Notes under the pieces: generated by a model | Told to the model about the DNA's origin: nothing | Database searches by the model: none | What the model saw: only the letters and a program-made list of their open reading frames with translations | In this document: positions 15,301 to 44,600 of the stretch, piece after piece | How the letters are laid out: each line of letters begins with the position of its first letter | Numbering within the stretch: position 1 is the first letter of the stretch | DNA from: Podarcis cretensis | Taxonomy: Eukaryota | Length of the DNA: 64,000 nucleotides | Direction: 5' to 3' | NCBI GenBank assembly: GCA_951804945.1 | Contig: OX638156.1 | Coordinates: 39,866,001-39,930,000 of the forward strand | Program-made: the position numbers and the translations under genes

Positions 15301-16869
15301 AAGCCAGCCACTGTGCCACAGCAGTCCCAGTCTTCGTCTCACACGCCTTTGCACCATCTTCAGCAAGGGTTGCCGCAGCAACAGCAGCAGCCACAAAAGC
15401 CGCAGCAGCAGCAGCAGCAGCAGCAGCAAATGCATTACTATCAGCACCTGCTGCAGCCCATTGGGTCCCAGCAGCAGCAGCAGCGTCCACCTGGCAAGTG
15501 GCCAACCAATTCCAGCCAGCCGTCAGCCCAGACTGTTGGTCCGGGGTTGTCTCATATGCCTCAGTGGAGCAGTCATGCCTTTCCTGACCTGAGCTCTGAC
15601 CTGTATAGTTTGGGTCTTGTGAACAGTTACATGGACAATGTGATGTCGGAGATGCTGGGGCAGAAGCAGCAAGGACCTAGAAACAACACGTGGCCAAACC
15701 GCGACCAAAGTGATGGAATCTTTGGGATGTTGGGAGAATTTCTACCTTTTGATCCTGCAGGTGTGTGCTTGTTAATTAAATACAACCTTCTACTACCACA
15801 TGCTCATTGAGTAATGTGTTTGAATGTGTTGAATGCTGCCCATCTGTAGACACAAACCATTTGTGTCTTCTGCAGGTGATGGGAAAAATTATAGGATTAC
15901 AAGAACAAAAACAACAGCAGGGGTTACCTTTAAAAAAAGTCTGCCAAATATTGGGTGAGGAAAAATAGTTTTTGAGGGCAGTAATTTTTGAAAATGTCAT
16001 CTTGCTGATAATCTTACTGTTTTATTATTTTTGTAAGTTTTCTACAATCAAGTGGTGTATAAATTTTATGAAATACACAAATATCTTAATTTAGTGGGTG
16101 GGACCCATGTCCAGATCTTCAAATAGTTGACGAGTCACAAGGAATTTCCCTACTGCATCCTACCCTGACCTCCCAGATGTGTTCTGTGGGGTGGCTAAAA
16201 AGGGAAAGTGTGCTCCCTACACCTCCTCTCACTGCCACTTCCTGCCTTCTAGCTCACTTAAGTCTGTGGCAACCAATTCCTGTTCCCAAGGTAGCACAAT
16301 TTAGCCATCCTGCTAGTCAAGTTTTGTTCAACTTAGTAGGATTGAACAGATTTGCCTTGCTGAGGTTTTCCAGAGTATGTTGGGTAGAGGGGGAACATTC
16401 CTTTGGACAAAGTCATCTTAACAGCAGGATTTTTGTGCCTCTTAATTTCTTGGATCTGCTTCCTTCAGACATTCTTTAGTCTGTTCCATCTTTATGATGC
16501 AGAGCAGTCTCTCTTAGCAATAGCAATGCTAAGCATTGCAATAGCAAAGGCTTTCTGAAATTAGTTTCCCCAAAGGTCTGATGGGCTGCCAAGTTCCATA
16601 GTAGTATGATATGTGGAGATGATGGACTTACATGTGAATATACATGGGCAGCTTTTTGGCTCCATGTTGTTGGAGACAATGTTGTTGGAGGCAATGACTG
16701 ACCTGACAGGGGAGCAGAGGTATGGCCTGACTCTTCCTTTGGGTTGTCTCCCTTTCTTGTATTCTTCATTTGTTTGATCCTCCTCTTGATTTAAGCGTAC
16801 TGAATGGATTTCAGTAGTATTGATCTGTCTTCCTATTTGATGTGCATTCTAAAATAGGATCTAAGCTTC

Positions 16870-16912
<43 letters not shown>

Positions 16913-18954
16913 CCAGGCACACAGACAAAGCATTTCTTGGGCTTCCAGTGTGCATGATGTCACCACCACCTCTCTACTCTGCTGGTGGCTACAATGTTAG
17001 GGATTTATGTAGCATATTTTGCCTGCCCCCACATAAATCGCTCCCTGGTGAAGTTCTTAATTTTCAGCGCTTCAACAGGCATTCCCAACCACTGACTAGC
17101 TTCCATTGTGCTTGTATGCATGTGTACACATTCTCATATTCTCTCTGTTTGTCTGTCTGAGGGGTAGATGGCGGATCATTGCAATAGAAATAGCCAAGTG
17201 TGTCAATAGTTGACTGTCAGGTTTCTTTTTTTACTCCCAGTTGGCTCTGATCCAGAGTTTGCTCGTTATGTGGCTGGGGTCAGTCAGGCCATGCAACAAA
17301 AAAGGCAAGCACAGCACTTCCGTCGCCCCAGCAACACACGTAGCAACTGGCCGCATCCTGACGACCCACACAGAACCTGGCCTTTCCCAGAGTATTTCAC
17401 AGAAGGGTAAGGAGCTATCTGTGGCACCCTTGTGTACATCCAGCTTTGCAAGCAGCTGTAAAATATAGTAAAGTAGGGATTTTTGCTGCATCAGTTACAT
17501 ATCTTGTTTAGACATACCTACCCATATGCTTAGAAAGTTGAGGTAATTTTAATCTGTTTTAGTATTCAAACTTTTATATGTTTTAAAGTATAGTTGTGAA
17601 TTTTTCTCAATTTTATTGTTTTAACTTTTTGTAAACCACTTTGAGGGTTTTGGTTTTTTTTACAATCAAGTAGTATATAAATTTTAGTGTGTGTGTGCGT
17701 GACCACTTTGCGTGTGCCCAATTGACATGCAGCTGTCAACACGTGTGCTGCTTTCGTTCCCAGAAGGGGTTGGTGTGGGGGCAGAATGAGCTTACGTGTG
17801 ACTTCTGATGCGCACAATGACCCAGAACGGAACCCCTGTGCAAATAGGGAGTTGCCTGTTTATAATATTTATACTGCAGCTCTTCCAAGTTCAGGATTGC
17901 AGCATGTGGATATTTTCTGCTTTGGTTCTGAGGCCATAATGCAAGGGCAGCCAAGGTATCACTTTTCTGATGTGGTTGGACTCCAGGTCCCATCATTCCT
18001 AGCCATTAACTGTGCAGGCTGGAGCTGATGGGAGCTGCAGTCCACAACATCTGCAGGACACCACCTTGGCTGCCGCTGCAGTAATGCCAGTTTTAAAGGG
18101 TTGTTAAGTGAATATGTACTGGGTCCTTAGAGGGGATATGGATTCCATATGCAGTGCCTGAATAAGCCATGGGATAAATGCTGTAAGATGATGCTGAATT
18201 TGTCAGTTTAGTTTTATTTTAGTGTTAGCGTTCATGGAGATTTTTCTTCTTGCCCTGTGAAGGTTCAGTAACGTTTAAGAGCAACTAGGGTGGTGAGCCT
18301 CCCTGCCACCGCTCACATCTCTACTGTTTGTCTCTTTCTCTTGATTGCTTCCCTGCTCTCATCTCAGGGAGATGGCAAGCAGCTGGTCAGGTACTCAGGG
18401 CGACTCTGCCAGCTCCAGTGATGAGACTTCCTCTGCCAATGGAGACAGTCTGTTTTCCATGTTCTCAGGGCCAGATATTGTTGCTGCAGTCAAGCAAAGA
18501 AGGTGAGTTGAATTATTGACAAAGCAATAGGCAAAATCTTTGGTTTTGCTGGTGGATAAAGATTTTGCCACCTTAACTTGCAAGGGTCAGGCTGTTTCAA
18601 AACTTTCCTGTGCCAAGTGTGAGTCACAAGGTCAAGCTAGGTTTGGAAATAAGAAAGAAATCTGAACTACTCTTGGCTGTCTTGCCACCTGTGTTTTGTT
18701 TCTCCTTTAATGTTGCCTGAGCTTGCAGTTGTTTCAGCCCTTTGAAAGAAGCAAGAAAAGAAACCGGGGCCCAGAGGGTTTGGGGAATATGCTATAATCT
18801 TCCATTTCTGGTTGTGGTTCTGACTACTTTTCCCTTAATTTGTCTTGTCGGATTTATTCCTGCTCATTAGTACGTGCCTGCATTGGTGGAAGCTAGGAAA
18901 GCCACATGGACGTGCTGCATGTGTTACGTCTCTGCTATAGTGACAGGCGTGCTC

Positions 18955-18987
<33 letters not shown>

Positions 18988-21112
18988 GAATAATAATAGA
19001 CATGTGGCAAACAGGTATTTGAAAATCAAATGTGGATTGGCTGTGGCTCCCTCTTGAGCACACCCAGCAGCAAGCACCAGATTTGTGGCTGTGAAATAAC
19101 CATGAAGCTACTAAAAGTGCCCAGTGACAGAAAAGAGGATCCACAATTGAAAGTCCAGTTAATCAGTCCAATGTCACACAGTTTTGACAACAGCATGCCT
19201 GGCGTTGAGTCCATGTTCATAAATACTATTCCTCTGAAAACCAGATGCTGCTGAGGCAGAGCTGCTACTGCCAAGGGAGGTCTGTAGCCTTGCTGTCCTG
19301 CTTGAAGGCTTCCCCAAGGCATAAGCCAAGCTATTCTTAGGGACAAGAACCCTGTGGTCCCTAATGAATAGTGATTGTGACCATCCTACAGCTATTTGAG
19401 CAGGACTGGACAATTAAATATTAAGTATTGCAAAAGTACAAAACCCTGCTTTGCTGCAATATCAGAAGCACTGGTCCACCAATTTTATTGGCTGCAGTAC
19501 GGCCTAGCTGCTGCTGTGCCATAGACTTCTATCTGCCTTGTTGGCTAGGTGTCTGAAAGTTTACTTTAATCCATAAACCTTTAATTGCCATGAAAGTAGC
19601 GGGTTAGATGCAAAGGCCCTTAGTACAAGTGCACTTCAGTTGTAAGACTCCTATTGCCCTCTATTTTGACCACGGAAATACAGCATAAAGTGTTGTCAGA
19701 ATTGAAGAATATTTTCTCATTTAAGACCCTGCCATGACACTAACAGACCATTTTCTCTCATTGGATAAATATTTCCACAGGAAACACAGCAGTGGGGAGC
19801 AAGACCCAAGCACACTTCCTTCCCCACCACTCCTTTCTACAGTGGATGATCATAGTCAGGCAAGTATCAGGCTGAATAGTGCCTCTTTTTGGGTGGCTAA
19901 TGGTGGAGGGGGCCTCTTTGATGGGATTCCAGGTGGCTTTAAAAAAAAAAAAAAAAATCCCTCAGTAACAATGTTCCCTGAACTCAGCCCAGTTTTAAAT
20001 AGTCAATTTCACTATACTTCCAGATTTTATGGCCAGCAAAACTGCACTGCTTCATTTTTTATTATAAACAACTGAATATGCTCCATGGAATTTATTGGAG
20101 ACTTCAAAATGTTTCACTTTTACTTTGATCTTAGGGAGTGTAGAACCATTGGAGATGCATTTCCCCCTCCCCCTTCTCTGAAAGCCAGATAATATATTGG
20201 GCTGCTGGGAGAACTTCCCAGGTGTATGGTATTGCTCTGTGTGGTGATTTATGTAGGAGGGCTTTGACCCCAACAGGCTGCCAAGCAACATGGCTGGGTG
20301 GCTCTTCCTCCTTCCCAAGGGAGTGCTTTTGGAGTGTTGCAGAAATGGCAAAGAGGTGGTACTAACTGCAATAATAGTCCAAGTTCTAACCAGGGTAGGA
20401 GAAAGAACTATGGGAGAGTTTCTTCTTCATTGCTCCCCTCCCATTTGTAAAAGACAAGAATATCGTCTCTTCCTGCTCCTGGATTCTGTGGCTTTAGTGC
20501 TCTCTAGGGACACTGGAGGTGGGGCTATGAGTGGGCCCCTTATGTGTGCTGTTGGTCCAGGATGTAGTGGTTTACATGGGACAAACTGCTCCAGTGGGCA
20601 AGATTTCTGGAGATGCCCCAGGAGTTCAAGTCATCAGTGGGACAGGTTACCTTGCACTCTGATAATGTTCCTGTGTGACTGTCATTCACTCGTGTGGAAG
20701 AAAGTGGTATACTAAGGAACATTTGCAGCAGGGCCAGAAATGGTTCCTGGCCGTGGATGTGCAGGAAGGAAGCTCAGATGTTGTCATTGGTCTCTTGCAG
20801 GACAATAAAACCAAAACCTGGCCTCCGAAAGCTCCTTGGCAGCACACACTGCCCAGTCAAAACATGTCTTTGTACCAGATGAGTAGCCCTGCCAGCCAGT
20901 GGAATGACACCATGCAGATCCTGCAGTCACCCGTTTGGTCCACAGCCAACGATTGCACACCATCAACAGGGATTTCCTCCACTTTTGCCTATGCGCAGCA
21001 GCAGCAGCAGCAATCGCCGCCGCCGCCATCTCAGCACAAACCGATGAATAAGGGCTTTAAACCTTTTCCAGTCAAGCACGAACGCAGGCCATCTTACATG
21101 CATCAGTACTGA
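3346..21112 (+). CDS. GARRE1: Granule-associated Rac and RHOG effector 1 (KIAA0355), 3' portion; N-terminal exons lie upstream of the window
   Basis: Phase-consistent exons: 3346-3552, 4408-4548, 4851-4946, 5058-5219, 7399-7557, 10281-10378, 10508-10633, 14739-15760, 17241-17406, 18368-18502, 19781-19859 (GC donor), 20801-21112 (TGA). The translation (VLGRCFLTVMQVHFQFL...ATSRLRERGCDGCLAGIEVQQLFCSQS...LPTDQEMQEVIDFLSGFNMG...QGPRNNTWPNRDQSDG...DNKTKTWPPKAPWQH...ERRPSYMHQY*) matches KIAA0355/GARRE1 as I recall it. Confidence 0.93.
5585..5810. mobile_element. Tc1/mariner (pogo/Tigger-like) MITE
   Basis: TA|CAGTGGTACCTC ... GAGGTATGACTG|TA terminal inverted repeats with TA duplication; internal TAACCTGAA repeats. 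Confidence 0.85.
10794..11149 (+). mobile_element. Full-length Sauria SINE
   Basis: tRNA-like head GGGACGCGGGTGGCGCTGTGG...GGTTCGAATCC, tail CCCTTTACCTTTAC, perfect 13-bp TSD TAGTGGGAATGTA at 10781-10793 and 11150-11162. Confidence 0.92.
12623..13606. mobile_element. Non-autonomous hAT DNA transposon (984 bp)
   Basis: Imperfect TIRs TAGCACTGGGCGATAT / ACATCGCCCAGCCCTA; perfect 8-bp TSD TTCAGAAG at 12615-12622 and 13607-13614; GC-rich interior with no transposase ORF. Confidence 0.88.
14141..14245. mobile_element. Short palindromic MITE-like repeat (related copies near 3027-3092, 31966-32087, 41280-41392)
   Basis: Shared core CTAAGT..TACTCA.AGTAGACCCAT.GAAATTAATG with an inverted second half. 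Confidence 0.55.
15403..15429 (+). repeat. Coding (CAG)8CAA polyglutamine tract in the GARRE1 large exon
   Basis: Direct reading; further short CAG runs near 15376, 15469 and 20996. Confidence 0.9.
16871..16912. repeat. (AGAT)n microsatellite
   Basis: About 10 perfect AGAT units. Confidence 0.95.
18955..18987. repeat. (TAT)n microsatellite
   Basis: About 11 TAT units. Confidence 0.95.
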
Positions 21113-26420: not shown

Positions 26421-27553
26421 GTGAAAAGCAGCAATGCACCAGCTCCTCTGCATTCCAAAGCAGCTGTGGTGCTCTTTCGTCACTCATTAATAAAGTGTTA
26501 TTACTGAGGCAATCTTACCCAACCTGCAGCCTCTCAGACAGTTTGAACTTCAACTCCCATGAACCCTGGATAGCACAGCTATGTTGACTGGAGCCAATGA
26601 GTTTTAGTCCAAAACATCTGGAGGGCATTTGCTGGGGAAAACAACTCGTGCTAAGCTACAAAACCAGCTATCCTTTTCCTAAGAATCCATGGGGGGGAAA
26701 CTCAGTTCACTGCCTAGAATCTTTCAGTAAGTACTAGCAAGAAACATTTAAAACATTGCTAGAAAGTTAGCAGTCCAGGAGGGAAAGAAAATAATATTTC
26801 ATAAAAGCACACTGAGAACTATGAGATATGGATTGATCTGAAAATATTAAGTGGTTCAAAACAGCCAGTTGAAATATCTTTATTTTTTTCTCTACTGCAT
26901 GTATTTATCAGGATCAATATGGTTTTTACTACAGAAAAGGAATACACATTAAAGTAATCAAAGCTTAGCAGTGCCCTTTACGAGTGATAATGTTTAATTC
27001 CATACAAATAAGAGGCAAAAGGAGGTGTTTTGTCAGTAGGCATGTGACAATTCTGTCTTCCAAGCACTAACGGGTAACTGCATACACCACCACATTGTTA
27101 TAATCTCTTGCTCTTTTCACCATATCCGGAATAAGATTTTAATGTAAAAATGCTAAGTACCCCTTCTTTACCAACCTTCTTCATGGGTCACTGGGCTAGA
27201 ATGTAATGTCACCTGGAGAACTGATGCTCTGAGGCAATGGCAAATGTTGATAATAATACCCATCAACCTTGACCTTTTAAGCAGTGACATTGTAGTTGAA
27301 GGAATATGCAGTGCACTATGTCATTTTTCCTTTTGCACCCAAGGTGGGGGTAAAGCAAATAGAATTTACTAGTTGATGGCAAAGAGGATGAAATGAAGGC
27401 AGGAATGTGTTCTGTTAAGGAAGCATAATTCAGCTGGCTTTCCATCAGGTGCTGGATTTATTCCTCTCCTTTAAAGAGGCGGGGACTAATGGATCTTCCA
27501 GATTCACTCCCCATTTCCTTCAAGGATTCACAAGTGTGCCAAGGAGCACAGTA

Positions 27554-27647
27554 TCAGTCTGCAACAGTCTTCCCTGCATTTGGAGAGGGAGACGCATCTG
27601 CAATAGTAGCTAAATAAATCAGGTTTCTGTGCAGTGTGTGCTGGTGT
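27554..27647 (-). CDS. SS18L2: SS18L2 coding exon 3
   Basis: HQHTLHRNLIYLATIADASPSPNAGKTVAD*, preceded by a polypyrimidine tract and ttacag. Confidence 0.92.
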
Positions 27648-29655
27648 CTGTAACAGAGAAACAGAAGAATGAGATTCCTTAGGGCAACTGAAATAACAGA
27701 ATTGCTCTGGCAGCCAGCATACAAGTGACAGTAGGATTTAGGTCTCTATTTTGCTCACTTTATACTTGAGAAAGCAGGGGGAAGGGAAGAGTTGTTAATT
27801 AATATGAAGCCAATAATATTTTTGAATCCTCTTAGCTACTTTCCCCTGTTCCTGATAGTATTTTATTTTTAAATTGAAGGAAATGTTTTTTTAAAAAATA
27901 TACTAATTAAGTCAATGTTTTGTTGTCATTTAGTCGTGTCCGACTCTTCGTGACCCCATGGACCAGAGCATGCCAGGCACTCCTGTCTTCCACTGCCTCC
28001 CGCAGTTTGGTCAAACTCATGTTGGTAGCTTCGAGAACACTGTCCATGTTTAATGATCACTTAATTCCTGCAAAGGCATAGATGAGTGGGCAATGATGCA
28101 CACTGGAGCACATCATTCTAACTTTACATTCGCACTGATGTCTGAACTAGCAGTGTCTAACCAGGGAAGATCTTGGGGTTGTGGTACACAGCTCTATAAA
28201 ATCATCAAGCTTGTGCAGTGGCAGCAAAAGGGGAAAATGTTAGGGATTATTAGAAAAGAAATTAAAAATAAAACAGCCACTATTACAATGGCCTTTCAGA
28301 AGTCCAGGGCTGCCAAGAAGAAGGGGTCAGTACATCTGTAAGCTATTACCTCCCACATTAAATTCAGCAAAATAAACAAGATTTTCATTAATGCCCTGCA
28401 CAGTCTGGTTGTGTTTGACAGACTAATTGCATTTATTTCAGCAACAATGTGCCTGATTTCAGTTCTCCTTCACCTCCCCTGTAAATTTGCTCAGGACCAA
28501 TGAGATTTATTCAAAACCACGTCTCGCAATGAGACACGCAAGCTCTCTAAACAGTTACTTGATTGTTTGCTTTAATCAAGCAAATACAAAAATGAAGTCC
28601 TGAAAAATGCATAATAGGCGACTCTTAGATTGAATTTACTTACTGCACACATTCTTCAGCTCTTCCTTTATTCTGATATTCCACAATACATCGAATCAGC
28701 TGGTCATTTTCTTCAAGCAGCTGAAAGTCACAACAGCACTGGATCAACTGCATATTACTGAAACTTGTTCAAGAACAACTACTTAACAATTACACTGGAT
28801 AATTGTGAGGATGCTTTATAGACTGTGAACTACCATCTCACGATCAAGGAGGCAGTGTGTGTGGGGGGGGGGGGGGGGTCAGAGGCTTCAAAGGCACCAG
28901 GGAACAATTTTAAGAGCACCATGGTGCCCGCAGGTGTCCTGATGACCCCTGATTTCAGATTATTAAAGTGGTGAGTGAAGAATATCCGGTGTCAACTTCA
29001 GTCGTCAACTTACAGACTTAAAGGGTGAGTTTTCTTTCTGGTAGCGTTAAGGGTTTACTGTTACTGCAAAAGATATAGGATATTCTAGCAGACTATGCTA
29101 TTCATTTGTTTTAGTCATCTTTCTGGCGGTGTACCGCTTTTTATTGCACTTGGTTATGTCCTTTCGCTAAGCGATCATGATCGAGGAGAGTGAAGGAGCC
29201 GAACTGCGCAGCGACAGTGATTCCGCCCATCCCTGAGAATGTACAGAGTGCACTGCCCTTCCTAATGCGCAGGCGGATCAGAGTGGGCGTTCCTTGACCA
29301 GGCTCGCTGACGTCACGCTCTCAGCTTTTAAGCAGCCCGGACCATCTTCACGCAGCCTGCAAGAGGCGAGGAATGAAATGGCAGAGACACTTCCGGTTCT
29401 AACTGATTAACTAACTAACCCAATACAAAGAACCTGGCCAGGAAACCAGAGAGAGAAGGTAGAGCGGCGCTCTGACGCCTCCCGACGTTCTTGCCTTTCC
29501 TATGGCGGCGTACGGGAGTTAAAAAGAGGGCTGCGTGAGCGACGCTCCCCTCCGCTCTCTCTATGGCGCCCGTCCCTTTCGCTCACCCGTTGCAACGTCT
29601 CTTGGTTCACCTCCGCCTTGCCTCGGAGTTTCTCCGGCACGAAAACCACCGACAT
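27554..29655 (-). CDS. SS18L2: SS18-like protein 2 (SSXT/SNH-domain small protein), complete 3-exon gene, 79 aa
   Basis: Exons 29655-29587 (MSVVFVPEKLRGKAEVNQETLQR|gtgagc), 28720-28644 (tttcag|LLEENDQLIRCIVEYQNKGRAEECVQ|gtaagt) and 27647-27554 (ttacag|HQHTLHRNLIYLATIADASPSPNAGKTVAD*). 69+77+94=240 nt in frame with canonical GT-AG sites. Closely resembles human SS18L2 (MSVAFVPDWLRGKAEVNQETIQRLLEENDQLIRCIVEYQNKGR...LHRNLIYLATIADAS). Candidate minus-strand AATAAA at 27457-27462 and 26879-26884. Confidence 0.93.
27921..28045 (-). mobile_element. BovB/RTE LINE 3' fragment in SS18L2 intron 2
   Basis: Reverse complement of ...GTCCATGGGGTCACGAAGAGTCGGACACGACTAAA...(CAA) tail; possible TSD ATGTTT. 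Confidence 0.85.
28160..28300 (+). mobile_element. Old CR1 ORF2 fragment
   Basis: Decayed motifs resembling EKDLGV...CAVAAKxxxMLGIIRKxIxNKTxxI. Confidence 0.55.
28644..28720 (-). CDS. SS18L2: SS18L2 coding exon 2
   Basis: LLEENDQLIRCIVEYQNKGRAEECV(Q), flanked by tttcag and gtaagt. Confidence 0.92.
29587..29655 (-). CDS. SS18L2: SS18L2 coding exon 1
   Basis: ATG at 29655-29653, 23 codons, then a CGG|GTGAGC donor. Confidence 0.92.
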
Positions 29656-29689
29656 GCCAGCGGAGGGAGCGGCAGCGGCTTCTAAGCCT

Positions 29690-30620
29690 CACGCGAAAAG
29701 TGGGCCGCAACGCAAAGGTTGATGGGAGCAAAAGGACAATACTTTGCACCGATTGGCTGCCCCTGTGCGGCCTGGGAAGCTCCCGTACATGAATGCAGAT
29801 CATTAAATGTAGAGTAGTCCATATCCCGGTGTGACTAAGAAGCTTCCGAGTCTTTAAAATTCCGACCAGTTAAACGGGTTAGACTACAGTGAAAGAATTT
29901 ATGTGTGTATATGAGAGGGAAGGTGGAAGACAGGAGTGCCTGGCGTGCTCTGGTCCATGGGGTCACGAAGAGTCGGACACGACTAAACGACTAAACAATA
30001 ACAACATGAGAGGGAAGAGTGTGCCAATCAATTTCTAGCGTGACGGAAGAGGGAGGAAAACTTTACTTTCTCCGCGCTATGCATAATTTTGTGGATTTCC
30101 ATCACGTCAGGCTGCAGCATAGACCGTGCTAATTAAGGGGCCCGCTCGCCACTCTCTTTCCAAATCTACGCTCACTCGCAGCAGAGACGCGGCTTCTCCG
30201 ACTAGCAAAGCTTGCAACCAAAATTCTCAAGTTAACCCGGGAGCTGCAGTTCGCGCGACTCTACATCCTTCCTTCAGTCTATAGTCTACGTATCAGAGGA
30301 ACTCCCTCCCCCCCTCCCCCCCCCCGAAGCCTTCGTAGCAATTGGCCCGTCGGGCCGGTGGAGGCGGGCTCTGAAAACAAATTACGACGGCGGGGCCTCG
30401 GTTGTGTTGGGAAGGCGGGCTTTGGGCTGATTGGCGAGCCGGAAGTCTCGAGGGGCGGATATGATTGGTCAGGGGCACGAAAGGTGGGCGGGGCCAGGTC
30501 GCGGTGAGTTGCCAGGGCTCCGGTTGTCAAGCGGCAGCCAATCAGGGTGGGGGATGGGAGCGGGTGGGGGAGGCGGAGAGCGCTGAGAGCCGTTCAGACG
30601 GAGGAGCGCGCGGGTAGGAG
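29690..30620. promoter_or_regulatory. Bidirectional CpG-island promoter shared by SS18L2 (-) and KATNB1 (+)
   Basis: CpG-rich. CCAAT/ATTGG boxes at about 29752, 30341, 30430, 30464 and 30538; ETS CCGGAAGT at 30439-30446; GC boxes near 30452 and 30486. A probable non-coding KATNB1 first exon ends at the donor CGG|GTAGGA at 30613/30614. Confidence 0.75.
29923..30005 (+). mobile_element. 5'-truncated BovB/RTE insertion in the bidirectional promoter
   Basis: GGAAGACAGGAGTGCCTGGCGTGCTCTGGTCCATGGGGTCACGAAGAGTCGGACACGACTAAACGACTAAACAATAACAAC; perfect 12-bp TSD ATGAGAGGGAAG at 29911-29922 and 30006-30017. Confidence 0.9.
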
Positions 30621-32099
30621 ACAAGCAAGGCCGGCCGAGACGGGCCTCACGTCGGGGTAGGCCGTGGGTAGCCGCAGCAGCCCCCACCCGAAACCTCCCT
30701 GGAGGGGCCGCTGGCCCGGGAAGGCCTTCGGGCTGCCACCCGGGGCCGGGCCGGCCTGTTTACATTCCCTCCTCCGAGCAGGTGCTCGCCTGTCCGGCGG
30801 TGTGTGCCTCGGAGGTCCCGGCCAGGCCTCGACGGAGGAGAGAGGGCTGCTTCTCCTCCGGGCACCGCATGAGGTGGATGGGTGGGATCTTTCTCTCCCC
30901 GGGAAGAGTTGGCTGGCCTAAGAGAAAGGATTTCCTCGGGGCTGAATGGGATCTGCTGCCCACAGCACTTTGCGGGGTGGGGGTGGGAAAGTTCACAAGC
31001 TCGGGTGGCTGCCTCAGATTCGAGTCACTTGCTGGGAGGTGCTGACTGGGAGAGGGACGCTGCCCTCGTGCCCTGCTTTGTGGGGTTCTTGGGGGGGGGG
31101 AGATCTTTCTGGGTCTTAAATAGGCCTTTAGCCTGATCCAGTTAACAGGGCTCTTCTGAGAAGCTGCTGAGATCACCTTGCCTACGTCACCCATAAAAAC
31201 TCCATCCTGCCTAACACCTGCAGGGATGCAGCACACATGTATTTATTTGTTTCATTAAATGCTGCTTGATTATAAAAGCAAAAGCTCGAAGTGTTCTACA
31301 AAAATAATAAAGCATTGCAGTTATTAGTAAACAGAGGCAATATTTTAAAACATTGAAAAGTAAATAAGGTTGGCAATAAGCAAAAACAAAAAATAATGAT
31401 TAAAATATGTGTCAGCATCTTGCATACATGAGTAGGCTTGCTTAAGCAGACATGTTATTGGCAGGTGCCAAAAACAGTACTGTGAAAGTGTGGGCCCTAC
31501 CACACTAAAATATTGATTTCTTACCAATGTGGAATAAGTATTATTTGCCACCTGTAACAGAGGCAGTTCAGCAGTTCTGTACAATGGGGTAGTAATCCTC
31601 AATCTGGAAATTACATGTGCAAGTGGAAATTTGACAGTAAATTGAGGAGTGGAGCATGCAGACAAGAGTTACCTCCCTCCTGGAGGCAGGCTGTGAACAA
31701 AGTCTATTTTTGAAGGCCACCTGTCAGTTTTAGGGATCCTGCTTTCAGGATCAATTCTGTGCCCCACTGTCTGTCTCTGCACTACTCCCAATAGTTGTGC
31801 TAGTTGTATCCCAAAGCAACTGAATAACACCAAGTTGTCAAAGTCTGCTCTAATTTATTGATCATTGATGTAATGACAGAAGTACCTGTTATTGTTATTG
31901 GGAGATACACAGAAAAGTACCGTAGGAGTTCCTGATCACTTACATTCCATGTTAAAAAACATAATTGGGTTGTATCCAGCCAAGTACTACTTGGAATATA
32001 TCCAGTACAATTAACGTACCTAACTTAGTCATGTTCATCAATTTCAGTGGGTATACTTTGAGGAGGACTAATACTGTATGCAGCCCAATTCTGGAAATA

Positions 32100-32290
32100 C
32101 AGTCATACCTTGGAAGTTGAACTTCTTACCAGTCGAATGTTTTGGCTCCCAAATGCTGCAAACCCGGACGTGAGTATTTCGGTTTGCATCCAACGTGGGT
32201 TCCATGGGTTCTGATTGGCTGCAGGAGCTTCTTGGTTTCCAGACGTTTTGGAAGTCAAACGGATTCCGTTCAACTTCCGAGGTACAACTG
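32100..32290. mobile_element. Tc1/mariner MITE
   Basis: TA|CAGTCATACCTTGGAAGTTGAA ... TTCAACTTCCGAGGTACAACTG|TA. Confidence 0.85.
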
Positions 32291-32650
32291 TACCTGTTCT
32301 AAGTTATTGTTATAAAAAAAAGATAAATGAAGAAACCTGCTAAGCTCTATTTTAATGTAGTTTTTCTGCTGTGTTTTCTGAACTGGTTAAAACGAACACT
32401 TTCCTCCTAGGTAACTTTAATGACTGCTTCCTGAGATTTTGCTTGCATTCTGGAAGAAATAGGCCACTGAATAAGCCTAGGAGACATATTTGTATTTTTA
32501 AAATAAAAGCGCCATCGCCTTGACTGCTGCAGGACAGTTCAGAAACTTGAACCTTGTATCTGGGGGGTTGAGCCCCACACATGCTGATGAAAACAGAGCT
32601 TTGGGAGAAAAAAGAAGACTGCTTTCTGTAGCTGTGTGAAAATCACTGCA

Positions 32651-35600
32651 ATGGCAGCTGCAGTTGCCACCAAGACAGCTTGGAAGCTGCGTAAGTGAAG
32701 TCCACTCTTCTGCGTTTATAAACGGGATGTGTTCAGTGCCTGCAATTTTGTCTTCCACTCCTGCTCGACAGCTTGGGTTTCAGTGTTCTTCTGATCACTA
32801 GCATCAGGTACCTGCTCCAGCTGCTTAGCTGAGGACTTAGTGTCTTGTGTGGAATTATATTTAAAAAATCTTACTATGGCCAGAAGGGCTTACATTCAGG
32901 CAAGTGGACATAGAATAATTAGCTTAAAAAGCTACAATACATATCAGATATGTGTACCTGTTCACGTATACCTCATCAGTAAATGCCAGCTTAAATGTAT
33001 TGATTTTTGTGTGGGGCTGTAATAGGAGAGAGATGTGATAAAATGTGCTCATGTCTGCATTTGCTTTTTTTGTATAGAGGAAATCACTGCTCACAGCAGC
33101 AATGTTTCTTCACTTGTGTTGGGCAAAAGCTCAGGTCGGCTCCTTGCAACTGGTGGAGATGATTGTCGAGTTAATATCTGGTCAATTAACAAGCCGAACT
33201 GCATTATGGTAAGGATTGGCTAATTTCTCTTTGCTTGTGGGCAATGTGAGTCAGGGAGCAACCTCTGGTATTAGCTTTAGCCACCCTCCTTTCTATACAG
33301 GATCAAACATGAGATGGGAGGTTTATTTTAATCTGTGCTTTCGGTAATTTGGCTAAATACACCTAAGTGAGCCAAAGTATAGTGTAGTTAAGGCCAAAGT
33401 GCTGAGGGAAGAACAAGTTGCATTGACTGGCACCTCATGGATTGTTCCTCCCTCAGTTTGAGGGACAGAGCATGATGGCACCTTCACCTAGCAGTATATT
33501 GCAGGCACTGCTGCTCAGGATATACAGTGATACCTCGAGTTACAAACACCTCAGGTTACAAATGCTTCACGTTACAAATTCCGCTAACCTGGAAGAGTTA
33601 CCTCGAGTTGAGAACTTTGCCCCAGGATGAGAATGGAAATTGTGTGCCGGCACGCAGCAGCAGCGAGAGGCCCCATTAGCGAAAGCACACCTCTAGTTAA
33701 GAACAGTTTCAGGTTAAGAATGGACTTCCGGAACGAATTAAGTTTGTAACTAGAGGTGCCACTGTACCACCAGATAAAGGCACTATTGCACTCTGGCCCT
33801 CGAAATGGTCCTGGGCGATGTATCAATACATCGCCCAGGCCTAAAGATGACATTCTGGTCTCTTCAAAAACAGGAAGTAGTTGGATCTGACATTAGCAGG
33901 GTTTCAGTCAAGTGTCGTTCCTTTGTTTCTCATGCAGATCTGGAGATATTTTCTCCACCACCACCTTGCCCGCTGTCTTTTGACCTATGAGGAGCTAAGT
34001 TGAGCTATTGAGACTTGTATGAGTGGCTGCCTTGGGAGCTGTGGCTGTAGATCCCAGTATGTGTGTAATCCTTTGACTTGGAAGGGCCAAAAATCTGCAA
34101 TGGTATCCCTTTCCACAGCAATGGCCAGTTTGAAATAGTTTTTCTTTTGAATGATTTTTCTTCCGATCCAACTCCTGCACTTTTTCAAAAGGGCATTTCT
34201 CTCCTCTTCCACCCCTGCCTCTCTTTTTTTTGTACGGTAACTTATTAGTGCTGCAGAATTGAATCTAGAGCGGGCATTTCGACTGTTGCAGTACAGAGCA
34301 TGATGTTCTTTGTACTACTGCATAGTTTGTGGGAAGTTTGTGATGCAGCTTCATTTCATGCTAGCTGATGGAGCTGCAATTCATTATACACATATCTAGG
34401 AGTAAGTTGCTGAACTCAGTGGGATTTACTTTTGTGCAGGTAGACGTTCAGCCATAAACCTGCATTTCTGGGTGATATACTTAGTGCACCATTAAGAAGC
34501 ACTTAATGTGGTGGCCAAGCTCTGTATGGCTCTTGGCCTTTGCTTCAACCCTCCTGCAATGGGGCATGGGATTTCCCACTATTGCAGCAAAGCTCTGTGG
34601 GGGAAGTGCTTCTGAGTGTATATTCTGCTGGATTTTATTAGTCAATTAATGACCAGTTGTTGTAACATGAAGAAGTCTTCACTGGGTGTATAAAGGAGGT
34701 CCAGTTTGGCACCAGGTGACATGTGTGTGAGAAAGAGACACTTGAAGGAGGGCCTCTGGTGAACATAGGAAGGAATCAAATTTCTGCTCTTGCTGGAATA
34801 CTGAACTTCAGTGTCTGTCCATGGCTTTGAACGTGGCTTTCACCTAATCATTTCGCTACTTGTGGTGTGATGAGTGTAAACATCCTAGCTGTCCTTGTTG
34901 TTGCATGCCTTCCTGTGGAGTGGGCCACCTTCAGATGATTCACTGCTGCTTTTTCATTTTGCCCAGAGTCTAACGGGTCACACCACACCCGTGGAGAGTG
35001 TGAAGATTAATACGAATGAAGAGCTGATTGTTGCGGGGTCCCAGTCAGGCTCCATTCGGATCTGGGATCTGGAAGCTGCCAAAAGTAGGTTCAGAGCCAA
35101 CTCTTCTATCACTTTTCAGGTTGTCCAGCAGCCCCTTACTTTGCAAAGAGCAGAGAAAGAGAGAGAGAGCGCAAGCATACAAGGAAGGACGATATGCTCA
35201 ACTTTGAAAACTGCAGGGGCACCTCTTCCTCCACCTAGGTGGGAGAGGTGTTGGTACTGTTCAGATGCCAGCCCTGTGAATAAGAAGAGCTGTTTTGTTT
35301 GCACTCAGATCTTTATAATTTTCCCCAATAATATTTATCCATTTGTGTTATGTTTACAGTGCTTAACCTCAGCAGTCAACAATCTTTCTTCCATTACTTT
35401 CATAGAAAAGCAGGTTTTAATTTGATGTGCTTGGTAGATGCTTCTGATTTCTATTTTAAGAGACTGTACAGGAAATGGTAAAACATTTGTATGATTTTCT
35501 TATTTCATTCTAAACCAGATTATTTTTTTAAAAAAGAATTGTACTGAACCATTGAAATAGCAAATCTGATTTGAACTGAAAAACTGTATCAATCCTGCAT

Positions 35601-38600
35601 CTTCTTAGACCATGCTTGCATCTCAATTCCTTGCCCTCCCTTTCCCGTCCAGTTCTCCGTACATTAATGGGCCACAAAGCGAATATCTGCAGCCTAGACT
35701 TTCATCCTTTTGGAGGCTTTGTAGCTTCAGGATCCATGGACACCAACATTAAGGTAAGACTTTTGAGTCTCCCTCACTCCCTGACATCCTGCATGTGTAT
35801 TTCAGAACAGCAGGATCCCCAAAGCGCTGCATATCAGTGGATGTAAGGAGCTGTTTTGTATTAAGTCTGAGGAGTTGTTCATGCAGCCCAGCAATATTCT
35901 CATGGACCAGAAGCCGCTTTCCAGTGGCGTGGGCAGAGCTCTTCCCAACCCTTTAACTATGAACTGATTGTGCACCCAAGACCTCATTTGTGTGTGTTCT
36001 GCACTTCAGCTGACATCCTGTTTTTGAAATTCAAATAGTTGCATACTCTTAGAAAATGTCCCTCAACCCCAGGACTTTTTTAATTGGAGACCGGTGCTTT
36101 GGAAGATCTTCAAGACACTTCCAAGTTGCCATTGTAAAGCTTTTGTCCATTTCCTTCATGCAGCTTTGGGACGTGAGAAGGAAGGGCTGTGTCTTCAGGT
36201 ACAAGGTAAGAAGGAAAGCATATTATTTTGTCTGCAGGGCACCCCTCAAATCTCCTTCTGCCTCTAGGAGTTCTTCCATGTCCAGTTGCTACAGTGTTTC
36301 AGTTTGGAGAGCTCATTGAGGCAATCCCACCCACAGGTTCTGGGCAGTTTACAAAATTCCCAGCGTCTATTACATAAACAGGGTCTACATTGCCAGCCCT
36401 CAGGCCCCACCCAACCAAAGGAAGGGCCAGTGGGGAGAGGGGTCCATTGGGTACTGCTTCTTGAAGGTGCCCAGAGAGGCTTGATGCCATTAATCTTGCA
36501 AGTTAATATCTTCTCATCCCTTTTGTACTTTGGTACTGACCTTCACAGCCACCTTGCATTATTTTTTAAAATAGGGTGCTCCAGTTAAAAAGCATGCACT
36601 CGCTCACTGAACTATAGCACCCCCTGCACCTCTTCCCAAAGTACAACCTCTTCTCCTCCTGTTTTCTTAGCTCCCTCTGACTCGTTTCCAGGGCAACCCC
36701 TTTTTTGTGCTATCTTCCAAAATTCATGGTTTCTTTCCACTGTTGATGGAGCCCTCAGCTGGTCTCTAACATGCCAGCTGCCCCTCACAGCAATTGAGAA
36801 AGGCTCCCCTCCCTCCTAAAGGAGCCCAAGTACTTGGCAAATCATTAAGCTCTTCCCTATCCAATCTCATTTTCCTTCCTTACTAGAAAGTGATATTTAC
36901 AATGTTTGAAGCTGTATCTTGGCTATGTCTAAATGTAGCTTTCACCAACCTGGTGCCTTCCAGATGTTTTGCATGCTGGCTGGGGCTGATGGGAGTTGCA
37001 GTCCAACACATCTGGAGGGTGCCATGTTGGCAAAGGCAGTCTAAGGGATTGTATTTTTTCTCTTGCAATATAGTAACTTCACAACAAGACAGTTGTTGTG
37101 AGACATGCTCAGCCTTCATGTTTCCTGTGTGTGACCCATTGTTTCATCCTGGGAGTGCCGAGCTCTGCTAGGAATGAACTGGGTCTGTTTTGCCTTTACA
37201 GGGCCATACTCAAGCAGTCCGCTGTCTCCGATTCAGCCCTGATGGCAAATGGCTGGCGTCGTCTGCAGACGATCACACAGTGAAGGTACTGGCCTGATTT
37301 TGCTAGACCCCTTTGGCACTCACCTTCCTTCTTGTGGCAGTTTTGACTGCTTGCCACACCAAGAGGTGCTCTTTTGTGCCAAACAATCAGGTATGGGGTT
37401 GGGCAACCTCAAGGCTTTAAGGTTCTTTCTCTATCTAGTTGTGGGACCTGGCTGCTGGGAAGATCATGTTCGAATTCACAGGACACACGGGGCCAGTCAA
37501 CGTTGTAGAATTCCATCCCAATGAATACCTGTTGGCCTCTGGTAGCTCTGACAGGTAAATTCTTGTTGGGAAATAAGTGGGGGACAATAGCATGTAATGT
37601 GGCTCATCTGCAACTTGCAATTATTTGCTGCAGATACTTACATTTTCATTTGTGGAATTGGAATAATTGTTGGTGATGATTGAAACAGCTTACCTTTTGA
37701 ATTTCCTGTTTAGGGAGGCCCTTCTGGCCTCTTCATTATCCTCTTCTGGAACCTAGAACAAGGTCATACCTACCTGAATCTTTTGGTAGATGTCATCATG
37801 CTAGATTTTGGAGTTTGGTATATGCTGATGGCTCTCAAATCTTCTTTCTCTTCTTCCTTGAACCTTGGTGAGAGTATAGAGTCTCTGAAATGATGCTGGA
37901 TAAATGGGCTGGATGAACTGAAGCAGGTTCAGAGGAGGTGTAGATCAAGGGTCAGCAAACTTTTCCAGCAGGGGGCCGGTCCACTGTCCTTCAGGCCTTG
38001 TGGGGGGCCGGACTATAGGGGGGGGGGGAATGAACGCATTCCTATGCCCCACAAATAACCCAGAGATGCATTTTAAATAATTTTAAATAATTTTACTCAT
38101 GTAAAAACACGCTGATTCCCGGACCATCCGCGGGCCAGATATAGAAGGCGATTGGACAGGATCCTGCCCCCGGGCCTTAGTTTGCCTACCCAAGGTGTAG
38201 ATGAACAGTGGGCCTGTTGAGTTGAGAGTAGGTGTAAAATCTGTCTGAATGGCCTTGCCGCCCCTTCTGAAGGAACAGGTTTGCTGCTCAGGGGTGATAA
38301 TTTGAGCCAGCATTACTGCCACAGCTGTGCCTTTTCCCAGCTGCACCAGATATATTTGCTGCACCATCTTGTGTAAGATAAAAGATTTGGTCTCTATCAT
38401 TACAGGAAAGTGTTTTACATAGCTCACAAACTTGGTTCTATTTGGTTTAGAACACAGCAGCTGGGACTGACCTTAGAGAGTGGTTGTTACAGAGCTGCCC
38501 TGGTTACCAGTTGGTTTCTGGGCACTTCAGAGTGCTGTGTTTTCCTTTTAAATCCCAAAGTGCCCTAGCCTCTGGACACTTTGCTCTTAGGTCCCGCCAT

Positions 38601-41600
38601 GTGATTTTAAGAACGACAGGAGTTTCTGATGAGGTTGCCATCATTATCACAGATCTATTGGCTGGTCATGGCTAGAGCAAGCTTGTGAGTAACTGAGTGC
38701 TCTGTTCCTTGCCTAGAATCCCACTCATCTGCACCTGTTTGTTTTTTGTGCTCCATCCTTATTTTTATTAGGACCACAGACTGTTGCTAGAAACAAAGAC
38801 CAATGAATAATGAAGTGTTGGATTAACTCCTCCTTGCCTTGGGCCTAGGAGATCACATAGGTGTTTGTTTTTTTTTCTGTCTTGCAGAACAGTCAGGTTC
38901 TGGGACTTGGAGAAGTTCCAGGTGGTGAGCTGCATTGAAGAGGAGGCCACTCCTGTCAGGTACATCAGACTGGGGCAGTGATTTGTGTCAAGAGGCATGA
39001 GGGCATGTTCTTGCTTTGTGTGACTTTGCTATGGGGATCCCAGACTCTTAATGCTCTTTCAGTTCCAAGCTCTGGTTTGGCCAAGCGGCTGAAGCGAGGA
39101 AAGCATGCAGTTAAAGGCTAGCAGAGATTGTGACCATCTCCTGACATAGAATATCAGTGGCACACCTTGTTTTGCACCAGTGTCTGGATGACCTGCACAT
39201 TCACTTTCCCCCTCTCCCCTTCAGGTGTGTGCTGTTTAACCCCGATGGCTGCTGCTTGTATGCTGGCTGCCATGATACCCTGAGAGTGTATGGCTGGGAG
39301 CCTGAGCGCTGTTTTGATGTGGTCTTGGTGAATTGGGGCAAGGTGGCTGATTTGTCTATCTGTAACAATCAACTGGTGAGTGACTGAAAGGGCAGGAAGG
39401 GACTTGGGTTTCCTTCTCTGCTAGTGGGTGCAACAAGTGGACATGCCACAAGTTGTGCTTCTGACACTGGCAGTAGCATGGCAGGGCCATTCCTAATGCA
39501 CACTTGGCCCCTGACTCTTGCAAATGGACCCTGAGTCATCTCCTCCTCATGTCTCCTGGTAGTTTTCATTTTGAGTTTGCTTCCCGTTCCCCTCACATGG
39601 TTGCCAAGGTGGATTCTTGTTGACTTCCCAGAGCACTTTGGCTGCAAACCTGATGTAAAGTTGACTTGCACACAACATGACTTCGTTTCTGTTCTTCACA
39701 GATTGGTGTTTCTTTCACACAAAGCACAGTCTCTTCCTTTGTGGTGGACCTCAGCCGAGTCACAAAATGTGGGCCTGGCACCCGTGGGCTGATTCGGGAT
39801 GACAAGCCTCTCACTCAGCCCTTGCCTGCGGGCTCTTCCCTTCGACGCATCTATGACAGGCCAACGACGACATGCAGCAAACCCCAAAGGCAAGGAAGGA
39901 AGACTCCTCCTAGAGGGCGGGAGGTGGCAGCCTGTGTATGCCAAAGGATTTAGAGATGGAAACTGAAAGCAAAGGGATGTTCTCAGTGGTTTCTGTGTGA
40001 TCCCCTCCATTGGTTCTGGGGGGGTTTTCTAAGAAAAACTTGTTTGCCTATTTTTGTGTGCATGGCTTTAAAAGAGGATTAGCCAAATTCGTGAAAAATA
40101 AAGCCATCAATGGCTACTAGCCATGGTGGCAATGTTGTTGGTGGCAGAATGCCTCTGAATACCTGTTGCTGGGAATCCTAAGAGGGGAGAGGGCTGCTCT
40201 TGCTCTCGGGTCCTGCTTGTGGACATCCAGTTGGCCATTCAGGGGAAAATAGGACGCTGGGCTTCAGATATAGCTGAAGGAGCATCTCCACCTCCATCGT
40301 TCAGCCTGGACACTGAGGTTCTCCTCTGAGGGTCTTCTGGCAGTTCCCTTACTGTGAGAAGTGAGGTTACAGGGAACCAGGCAGAGGGCCTTCTTGGTGG
40401 TTGCATCCACCCTGTGGAATGCCCTCCCATCAGATGTCAAGGAGATAAAGAACTACATAACTTTGTGTAGGTGAGGAAGAGAAAGGAGAATGTTAGCCAC
40501 TTTGAGACTCCTTCGGGTAGTGATAAAGCGGGATATCAAATCCAAACTCTTCTTCTTTTAGAAGACACCTGAATGAAAGCAGCTTTTATTGGCTAGTTTT
40601 TAATGTTTGACATTTTTATATGTACTAGAAGCCTCCCAGAATGGCTGGGGAAACCCAGCCAGATGGGCGGGGTATTATTATTATTATTATTATTAGCCCC
40701 CATTGGCTTCAGGGTTGTTCTGGTATTCTTATATCTGTGGTTTAATGACAGAATGAAACACAACTCAGAGAGCGAGAGGCGCAGTCCAAGCAGTGAGGAC
40801 GACAGGGAAGATAAGGAATCCACAGCGGAGATCCAGAACACAGAAGACTACAATGAGATCTTCCAGCCAAAGAATCCCATAAGTGAGTGCTGCTGAAGTA
40901 ATCTGTGTGATGCCACAAAGCAAACCAAGGTGTCTTGCGCTGTTTTCCCCATTTTGTAATATTTGATCTTTGTGTGGCAGTTGTGAACAAGCATGTGACT
41001 CTCCCACAGTTGTTTTAATTTATCGTTGCCTCCAAAGACTTTCAAGAGGCAATCTTAGGTTCACAACTTGCTACTGAATATTGTGTTCTGGCATGGTCAG
41101 TCATTTAGAGGTAGAGTACTAGCATCTAAGTTTGCAACATGTGTTTGTTAAAGTATTTGCACACCATCCTTTGTACAAATACATCTGAGGGCAGTCCACA
41201 GTGAGAATTTACATCTGAATATATAACTAACACTGCCCCCAACCCCACCAGCAAAAAAGCCCCACACCAAAACACTGTGATTTGGAGCCATACTTAACTA
41301 GCTGAACATAAGTCACATTGAAGTCATTATTAACTTGTCCCATTGATTTCAGTGGAACCTAAGTACAACTAGCTTAGTCTGAATTCTACCCAATATTCCC
41401 AGGATGCATTTTTAGCACATGGAATGGTTGTTCCTGTCTCTTGAAAAGAAATGTGGGAAGGAGTGAAGAGGCATAACTGTACCCACTTCTTCCTCAGAGG
41501 GAGAAATATTTATTAATCCCTTTACCTGTAATGCAGAAGTGTTACTGCCATAGTGGAAACAATCTGTAGACTCATGAAGGTGACACCACAGGATCCTCTA

Positions 41601-44600
41601 ATTTCTTGTGTAACTTAAATGGAGTGCAAGGTTAGGCGCTTTATTTTTTGTCTTTTTCAGCTCGAACTCCACCCAACAAGAGTGAACCTTTTCCTGCACC
41701 TCCAGAGGATGGTGAGTTGGAATTTCTTTTTCAAGTATTGAGAAAGAACCAGCGAAGATCTCCATACATCTACTGTATTGCTGGCTTCACATGGACATTT
41801 ACAGTGTCTATGTTGCTGGGGGAAGTTATGAACTATCTTTTTCTCGAGTTCGGATTCTTCAGCTTTGCCTCCAAAGGGCAGCGTGTCGGCCCTTGGGGCA
41901 AAAGAGCCATGGACTGTCTTGGGTGGGAGTGGCAGGAACCTTTGAGCCCAGGGCCATAGAGCCCAGGGTCTTTGACTTCTAGGGCAGAGCTCTCGCCTGC
42001 TGCCGCTATTTGTGCGGTCTTGATAGTAAGAAAACATAGTTTTTCTTCCCTCCAGAGCCCATGGTTGCCAAAGAAGCCTCAAGGCTCAGTCAAGTGGCAG
42101 ATATTCCGACTCCGTTGCCAAGCCAAGAGAATGTAAGTCCATTGGTGTGCCCTCTCCTATTCCTGCTTCCCCCCCCCCCCCGGCTCCAGAAATGATGGTG
42201 CCTCTATCCCAGGATTTCCCAGCCTTGGGTCTCCAGCTCTTTTGGGATTACAACTCCCATCGTCCTTAGCCTGCAGGACCAGTGGTCGGGGATGATGGGA
42301 AATGTAGCTGGAGGCCCAGGTTTGGGAAACCCTGCTCTAGCAGCATGAAAAAGAGGCAGTGGCCTGTCACTGTGTTCTAAGCAAGGAAGTCCAGACCAGC
42401 CATTGCCAACCTCCAGGTGTGTTGGACTACGACTCCCATTATTTGTAAAGGAGTTGTAGTCCAAAACATCTGGAGGGCTCCAGATTGGGAAAGGCTGGGC
42501 TCAGTGGAGGATTTTTTAATTACTATCATTTTTTTTTATTAAAAAAATTACACACCACTTAATTGCCAAAACCTCTAAGTGATTTTGAAAGGCCTTCCCC
42601 AGCAGATCTTGATTCTGGTGGTTGGAATTCCCTGCAAGCTTCTTTCTTACAGCCAAATGTGGTGGAGGTGGGGTGGGGGGTAAGATGAGACCCAGGGATT
42701 TCCTGAGCAGATCCTATCTTGCACCTGATCCTTAACTTCATTTGAAGTGCTCCAGGTGCCTTGGAGCTGACCACTCAGAAGTTGCCAATAGCCTCTAGTG
42801 GGTCTGCTTAGAAAACAAAGGAGGAATGCATCAAGTCCTTTGTTGACATACCATGGAGGATCAGTGGTACTCAGTATGTGGTGCTCAGTATAGCCAGGTG
42901 GTTGCAAATATGGTATCAAAGCTTACAGCCCAGGTTTGTCTGCCCTGACTCCATCTCCACTTCCCACAGCAGCCTGACCCTATTCAGAGGTCGCCAATAG
43001 CATCCTCGACCCCCAAGACCAAGGTTGAGCCATCTGTGATCCCTGCAGCCAGGAATGAGCCTATCGGGCTGAAGGCCTCTGACTTTTTGCCGGTAAGTTT
43101 CTTCCCTGTAGAAGAGGGATTGGGAACGACAAGTGGCTGTCACCTGGGCAGGGAGGAAAGTAGTGATTTGTCTGTCCTGCGCACCCTGCTCTTTGGCTGC
43201 TTCAGAAGTTTTTAGCAGGTGTCAAAAAGGGGACAGTGAAGGTGCCTGCTTTATGTCAATAGGCAGGGAGTTCCAAAGTGTGGGTGCTGCTGCATTAAAG
43301 TAGCAATTTTGTATTGTGACCCTTGTAACAGTGCCAATTCCACAGATCAAAGTGGTCAAAAGGTCACAGATGGGGTAAGGCAATCCCGCAGGTAAACTGG
43401 TCCACAAAAGAAGGGATAATGTTTAGATGAAAGGACATCAGAAACTAGCCTTTAGCAAGAGCATGGATGGTAGTAGATCCCCTCCCTGGCTAAACACTTT
43501 AGATATTTCTCAGCTAGGGTACAAATAATTTAATTGTATGGCTAGTGATTTGGTTGGGTAGTAAATAGTATGATTGAATCAAGACAAAAAGTAGAGCCAG
43601 CCAGCCATTCTGAACAAATCAAAGGTAGTCTTATCAAGGAGACGGTAGAAAAGAATTCGCAGCCCAGCATCCCCATCTTTCCAATTGTAGTGATAGACCT
43701 AATATGTTCTATTCTTTTAACAGTAATGTTTCTGCCTCTAGTTGTGTTAAGTAAAACTGTAATAAACTATACAAAAAGGTATAATTTATGTGTTTGTGTG
43801 TGTAATACATTACAAATTAGACCATCAATGCCAAGTTCCCTTTCCTTTCTGTCCTTGCAGGCTGTGAACAACCAAAACCTGGCAGAGATTGTGGATGAAG
43901 AGGCCATGTCCCAAATCCGGAAGGGACACGAGACCATGTGCGTGGTGCTTACCAGCCGCCACAAGAACTTGGACACCGTGAGGGCCGTGTGGAGCACTGG
44001 AGACATCAAGGCAAGTGGCCTTTTCGTTGCCTTTGTTAAGCAGCACAGTTCCAGGGGCTTTGGGCTTAGTAGGTCCAGATCTCAAACCTCCCACCACTGT
44101 CAGCTTGGATACAAAAAGCTTGAAGTTTCATTGTTATCAGTTGACCAAGGGAGATGCAGATGATGAATGAGCATCTTTTGCTCCAGCTGGGAAGAAGGGC
44201 TGCTTTGGGAGCAGGCCCTGTGCCTTTTAAGAAGGCTCCTGTTCTTCCTGCTGACCTTAGGCAGCCAACACATCCCTTTCTTCTGGCCAAAATATTTGAA
44301 ATTCGGGGTGGGGGTGAGGAATCTGCAGTAGGAATACATTCCACAAGTTGGTTATTATGGTGTAATCAGCAGCATCTCACCTTCCCATGCTGGAAGGAGA
44401 GGGCTTCCACACAGTCTTGCTCTACCTGACAAGGAGGTAGCCCAGAACCATTCTCAGCTGTGGGGTGGGTGGCAGGACTGTGACCTGCAAGGAGACCCTG
44501 TAACTCAAGATGTGGCACAGACTCAGAATAGGCATTCACATTCTCTCTTGTGGATGCCATTCCTACTAGAGGAGGCTGCCTGCTTACTCTCCACTCAGAA

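Follow-up and report, generated by a model that had tools for sequence, protein, structure and literature searches.

A three-exon SS18L2 gene between GARRE1 and a KATNB1-type gene in the lizard Podarcis cretensis: a likely BAF-docking hairpin and a probable relocation in therian mammals

The analysis presented in this study identifies a three-exon gene on the minus strand of the Podarcis cretensis genome as the lizard orthologue of SS18L2, and suggests that its product is a tail-less SNH hairpin, probably one that binds the QLQ domain of SMARCA2/4. As a whole, this reading is given a probability of about 0.85. The gene lies in a window of 64,000 nucleotides (contig OX638156.1 of assembly GCA_951804945.1, positions 39,866,001 to 39,930,000 of the forward strand), and all coordinates given here are counted from the first letter of that window. 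The gene adds nothing new in itself, since it is an orthologue that was already known and publicly annotated, and the modest leads of this study are its neighbourhood, which points to a relocation of SS18L2 in therian mammals, and a histidine at residue 50 in squamates. The function of SS18L2 is still thinly studied, and few of the papers that name the gene treat it at length.

Results

Gene structure and promoter region

The initial annotation had described three short minus-strand exons of 69, 77 and 94 nt with canonical splice sites and an intact ORF, and both the coordinates and the 79-aa translation were reproduced. The joined ORF runs for 240 nt from ATG to TGA. Coding exon 1 (29587..29655, 69 nt from the ATG) encodes residues 1-23 and is followed by intron 1 (28721..29586, 866 nt, GT..AG, phase 0). 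Exon 2 (28644..28720, 77 nt) encodes the core of SNH helix 1 and the start of helix 2, and is separated by intron 2 (27648..28643, 996 nt, GT..AG, phase 2) from the coding part of exon 3 (27554..27647, 94 nt including the stop), which encodes SNH helix 2 followed by a short tail of low confidence. The TGA, at 27554-27556, lies inside the transcribed last exon. Even unjoined, exons 2 and 3 each match the Pfam SSXT family above its curated cut-off, at profile positions 12-36 (E 4.6e-12) and 38-60 (E 2.9e-08), respectively, and exon 1 alone and an overlapping 102-aa frame matched no Pfam family. Because exons 2 and 3 match SSXT at consecutive profile positions, the three-exon arrangement is not the product of chance.

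The 5' UTR covers 29656..29722 on the minus strand as far as the spliced contigs extend (X1 to 29717, X15 to 29722), and the 3' UTR at 26864..27553 is likely the extent of one isoform, with a longer form continuing beyond 26450. Three ATGs lie upstream within the window, none of which extends the N-terminus; for the one that is in frame, a stop intervenes where the open frame ends, at 29688. The ATG of SS18L2 falls within the only strong CpG island of the window (29151..31050, GC 0.59, CpG o/e 0.82), which contains CCAAT, GC-box and ETS-like motifs. From these features the island is likely a divergent promoter region common to SS18L2 and KATNB1.

An interspersed repeat was seen in intron 2, at about 27916-28046, and the bin 27812-28038 has a very high contig depth. 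One copy of this repeat (27916-27993) and a second in the CpG island (29923-30003) are 94% identical over 81 nt in opposite orientations, and presumably both resemble the 3' end of a BovB/Sauria SINE.

Splicing and transcript ends

Of 22 sequencing runs that a search listed, none with RNA on record, four were mapped to the window, from four studies and with four organism codes. Three are RNA-type (X1, X13 and X15) and one is DNA-type (X19), where the RNA-type status is a guess that is not on record and the contigs give no start sites, strand or level. All three RNA-type runs have the joint 27647/28644, and two of them (X1 and X15) also have 28720/29587; the ends of both joints read CT..AC, which corresponds to GT..AG on the minus strand. 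In X1 and X15, contigs therefore span coding exon 1, skip intron 1 and show exon 2 joined on both sides, and intron 2 is skipped in X1, X13 and X15. The contigs of X19 match the window nearly letter for letter and read through the SS18L2 introns, and among the 15 of 30 joints listed, neither SS18L2 joint was assigned to this run. X1, X13 and X15 are about 3% divergent from the window within the 3' UTR, so the splicing was seen in close relatives rather than in the source organism. In those relatives, the two junctions predicted by the initial annotation were joined exactly, and its statement that the gene keeps its introns and is not a retrocopy agrees with two GT..AG introns that are skipped in RNA-type contigs. 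The coding part of exon 3 has two listed differences in the relatives' contigs, both of them synonymous third-position changes (for the X1 contig, 30 of its 32 differences from the window were listed).

An AATAAA lies at 26884, and the contigs of X13 and X15 end at 26868 and 26864, 16-20 nt beyond it. The X1 contig continues beyond this end at 26864-26884 and past 26450. The contigs alone thus give a weak hint of what are likely two 3' ends for SS18L2, one with a poly(A) site near 26864-26884 and one longer.

Protein identity and family

The window product is letter for letter identical to a 79-aa protein (P0003; XP_033013271.1 of Lacerta agilis, XP_028595218.1 and further accessions) whose record names Lacerta agilis and Podarcis (Podarcis muralis) and which is labelled 'SS18-like protein 2' in NCBI/UniRef. 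The initial annotation had presented the gene as hidden, which does not hold for a protein that is already annotated and whose named orthologues range from fish to human. It had also called the gene invisible to the ORF track. This is correct in that no stop-to-stop frame of at least 80 aa carries it, but trivial, since the same is true of most spliced genes and this one is in the public annotation. A processed retrocopy or pseudogene was considered as an identity for the gene and ruled out by the spliced joints and the identical annotated protein.

When the unspliced frame that surrounds exon 3 was used as a protein query, 14 proteins were returned, mostly named SS18-like protein 2. A search with P0003 returned 205 relatives of 43-139 aa, and the best 120 of these were mostly SS18L2 proteins, from fish to mammals. 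Pfam SSXT (PF05030) covers residues 13-71 of 79 (E 2.9e-31), so that a single SSXT/SNH domain accounts for almost all of its length. A tree built from 52 N-terminal domains over 70 columns, with many forks open, separated the 30 named SS18L2 rows from 22 other relatives with support of 100/99 and placed the window protein in a squamate group (98/97) nested in an amniote group (96/92). The Pfam match and the clade support uphold the earlier assignment to a stand-alone SSXT/SNH domain of the SS18L2 family. Conservation also points toward function, as had been inferred: the Lacerta and Podarcis proteins are identical, those of Zootoca and the amphisbaenian Rhineura differ by one residue each, and positions 50 and 53 aside, the SNH domain is 80-99% identical across squamates.

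A search of the minus strand downstream of the TGA with five long relatives gave no convincing match to a QPGY tail. One unnamed protein of 241 aa (P0363) has an SS18L2-like N-terminus followed by a Q/P/G/Y-rich tail and is sister to the entire SS18L2 clade (97/94), and its sequence hints that SS18L2 may have arisen from a longer ancestor by loss of the tail.

Predicted fold

In a sequence search of the PDB, the SS18 portion of 7VRB was the sole significant match (E 6.6e-16, residues 12-69); yeast Snf11 gave no sequence match to lizard SS18L2 in that search. Residues 14-101 of SS18 make up the C-terminal end of the 143-residue 7VRB chain; with the resulting offset of 42, SS18 numbering equals query numbering. 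In that structure, SS18 helices 19-39 and 44-74 form a four-helix bundle with the QLQ domain of BRG1, and an I32E/L54E/A65E triple mutant of SS18 is reported to lose most of its BRG1 binding (PMC9117659). Lizard SS18L2 has I32, L54 and A65 at the SS18 positions in the 7VRB alignment, and in an alignment of 57 orthologues these residues are retained in 55, 57 and 56 sequences, respectively.

AlphaFold2 predicted helices at 18-41 and 44-67 with a core pLDDT of about 88-91, a mean of 73 and low-confidence ends. The top Foldseek match of this model was again 7VRB (prob 1.00, TMq 0.68-0.70), at an E of 3.5e-3, which is above 1e-3. VIA-align placed 7VRB at rank 26 among generic helical hairpins (Z 6.3). 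Taken by itself, the fold match is weak evidence.

Residues 50 and 53 in squamates

Codon 50 (27644-27646, minus strand) encodes His and codon 53 (27635-27637) encodes Thr. Of 18 squamates, 17 carry His at residue 50 and one, Anolis sagrei, carries Leu, whereas the remaining 39 SS18L2 rows all have Tyr; the 22 other relatives have Tyr in 21 cases and Phe in one. Residue 53 is Thr in 16/18 squamates and Ile or Val elsewhere in SS18L2. In the predicted model residue 50 is at i-4 from L54 on helix 2, and the two are likely on the same face.

Neighbouring genes and synteny

GARRE1 (KIAA0355) is located downstream of SS18L2 on the plus strand (3346..21112) and is convergent with it, ending 6.4 kb away. 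Its ten coding segments, with the stop at 21112, were identified from named homologues and by tblastn with Lacerta GARRE1, and its large exon contains a glutamine-rich stretch of CAG-type repeat at 15257-15430. Upstream of SS18L2 and divergent from it is a plus-strand gene (32411..44016, extent as mapped) with Pfam WD40 and Katanin_con80 domains, which we take to be KATNB1 from this domain pair. It has a spliced joint at 32690/33078 in X13 and X15. X15 also joins a repeat-like stretch at 32047-32153 to the KATNB1 exon at 32411-32690, and this stretch is possibly an alternative non-coding KATNB1 exon from a transposon fragment. Convergent with the KATNB1-type gene is a C-terminal kinesin on the minus strand (53862-61374) with motor and coiled-coil exons, presumably KIFC3.

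The human arrangement is different. On human chromosome 3, SS18L2 overlaps both SEC22C and NKTR (10.1101/2021.03.16.435537); human GARRE1, like GPI, is a chromosome 19 gene (10.1101/2021.01.05.423827).

As a proxy for synteny, the recorded contig of SS18L2 was compared with that of GARRE1 in the same species for equal size, together with the proximity of their accessions. The count omits rows with no recorded contig size and leaves out pooled records (Lacerta/Podarcis, Trachemys, Pleurodeles, koala/devil, Pteropus, Camelus, Loxodonta, apes and cattle), although pooled records of Gopherus and Xenopus laevis were counted as exact matches. SS18L2 and GARRE1 were on a contig of the same size in 25 of 26 non-therians, among them squamates, turtles, one bird, amphibians, the two monotremes, the coelacanth and the sterlet, and on contigs of different size in all seven therian single-genome records (five marsupials, Colobus and Perognathus). 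The single non-therian exception is Acipenser oxyrinchus, for which we assume polyploidy as a possible cause.

The accessions or locus tags of the two genes were at most 3 numbers apart in 8/12 non-therians (Lacerta, Tiliqua, Phrynocephalus, Pithys, Ascaphus, Rhinatrema, Xenopus laevis and the sterlet), and in Lacerta agilis GARRE1 is the next accession number after SS18L2. The distance was 18 in Zootoca and 35 in Rhineura. It was about 440 in the platypus and about 615 in the echidna, so that in these two monotremes the records indicate a shared contig rather than adjacency. Finally, mis-spliced mammalian SS18L2 records break after residue 23 (23/24; P0093, P0358 and P0297) or residue 48 (48/49; P0148), which suggests that mammalian SS18L2 likely keeps both introns, at positions that the human and lizard genes probably have in common.

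Discussion

The kept I32, L54 and A65, together with the reported interactions of the human protein, suggest that lizard SS18L2 binds the QLQ domain of SMARCA2/4. Human SS18L2 has been reported to interact with SMARCA2, SMARCA4 and subunits of cBAF/ncBAF, and it scored in a tethered-activator screen (10.1101/2021.07.30.454360). Knockout of SS18L2 caused G2/M arrest and impaired a breast cancer line, where knockout of SS18 or SS18L1 was without effect (PMC9381743). The model proposed here is that lizard SS18L2, predicted to fold as a two-helix SNH hairpin lacking a tail, would dock on the QLQ domain of SMARCA2/SMARCA4 at the SS18 site and complete a four-helix bundle. By analogy with SS18, SS18L2 would be an alternative BAF subunit, and we infer that it is likely mutually exclusive with SS18 and SS18L1. 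The QPGY tail is what drives phase separation of SS18 (PMC9117659). A BAF complex with SS18L2 would be without the tyrosine-rich tail that drives SS18 condensates, and since SS18L2 has no QPGY tail, no tail-driven phase separation would be expected. The more ambitious combination of claims, that SS18L2 is a tail-less plug defining a condensate-incompetent subtype of BAF and also that squamates have retuned its interface through Y50H, is considered unlikely.

Other explanations of the lizard gene differ in what they make of its unusual features. The short exons, none of which is in a long ORF, could be taken for a pseudogene, a retrocopy or a chance splice of non-coding sequence, and mammalian pseudogene-like copies do exist (for example the degenerate P0371). 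However, two canonical introns, the intact ORF, the CpG island, spliced joints that are exact in three studies, the synonymous nature of both listed coding differences and near-identity across lizards make this a negligible prospect. It could also be proposed that the lizard gene is an old paralogue located at GARRE1/KATNB1 and that mammals kept another copy at SEC22C/NKTR, which would account for the different neighbours in lizard and human. Against this, the mammalian sequences fall within a single amniote SS18L2 clade (96/92), marsupial and monotreme proteins belong to the same 90% cluster, and no second divergent squamate SS18L2 was seen among the matches listed (all 14 of one search and the best 120 of 205 in the other). 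The 70 columns used for the tree show no difference between the koala and the echidna, whose GARRE1 is on the same contig as SS18L2, and this speaks against an old paralogy. This proposal is already largely refuted and is regarded as very improbable.

A further alternative accepts that squamate SS18L2 is a real gene but holds that Y50H, with the I/V53T change, has abolished or weakened BAF binding, leaving the protein with another partner or as a weak modulator. The near-uniform His50 of squamates against the Tyr of all other SS18L2 rows favours this view, as does the probable placement of residue 50 one helical turn from the contact residue L54. On the other hand, I32, L54 and A65 themselves are kept, the remainder of the domain is highly conserved across squamates, and a term search of the main text of the 7VRB paper (PMC9117659) did not find Y50 named. 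Loss or weakening of binding is therefore rated as improbable, and docking on the SMARCA2/4 QLQ domain is preferred. As a natural variant, squamate His50 offers a ready test of the SNH-QLQ contact.

The linkage to GARRE1 in 25/26 non-therians versus 0/7 therians suggests that the mammalian position at SEC22C/NKTR is likely derived. On the simplest interpretation, SS18L2 occupies its ancestral position in this window, between GARRE1 and KATNB1, with the KATNB1 side examined in the window alone. It is very probable that an intact, intron-bearing SS18L2 moved in the therian ancestor from the divergent promoter at GARRE1-KATNB1 to the one at SEC22C/NKTR. The relocation was likely at the DNA level on the therian stem, with equal contig sizes and close accessions serving as proxies. 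A literature search found no paper on the synteny or evolution of SS18L2, with older subscription work on the origins of SS18-like genes being outside its scope. The different non-therian neighbourhood could help to show which phenotypes in human CRISPR screens are due to SS18L2 and which to effects on the overlapping SEC22C/NKTR promoters.

Compared with known systems, the window product shows no protein-level difference from the annotated lacertid SS18L2. Human SS18L2 (S18L2_HUMAN, P0294, 77 aa) belongs to the same clade and is likewise without a tail; it is identical to the lizard protein at 61 of 77 positions in an ungapped alignment, but has Tyr50 and Val53 where the lizard has His50 and Thr53, and the last ten residues also differ. 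SS18 and SS18L1/CREST have the SNH domain in common with lizard SS18L2, but they form a separate tree branch and carry a long QPGY tail, whereas lizard SS18L2 ends at residue 79. Yeast Snf11 binds the Snf2 QLQ domain in the same mode as SS18 (7VRC; PMC9117659). As a small QLQ-binding subunit, Snf11 is a precedent for the mode proposed for SS18L2, although it is longer and has a third helix.
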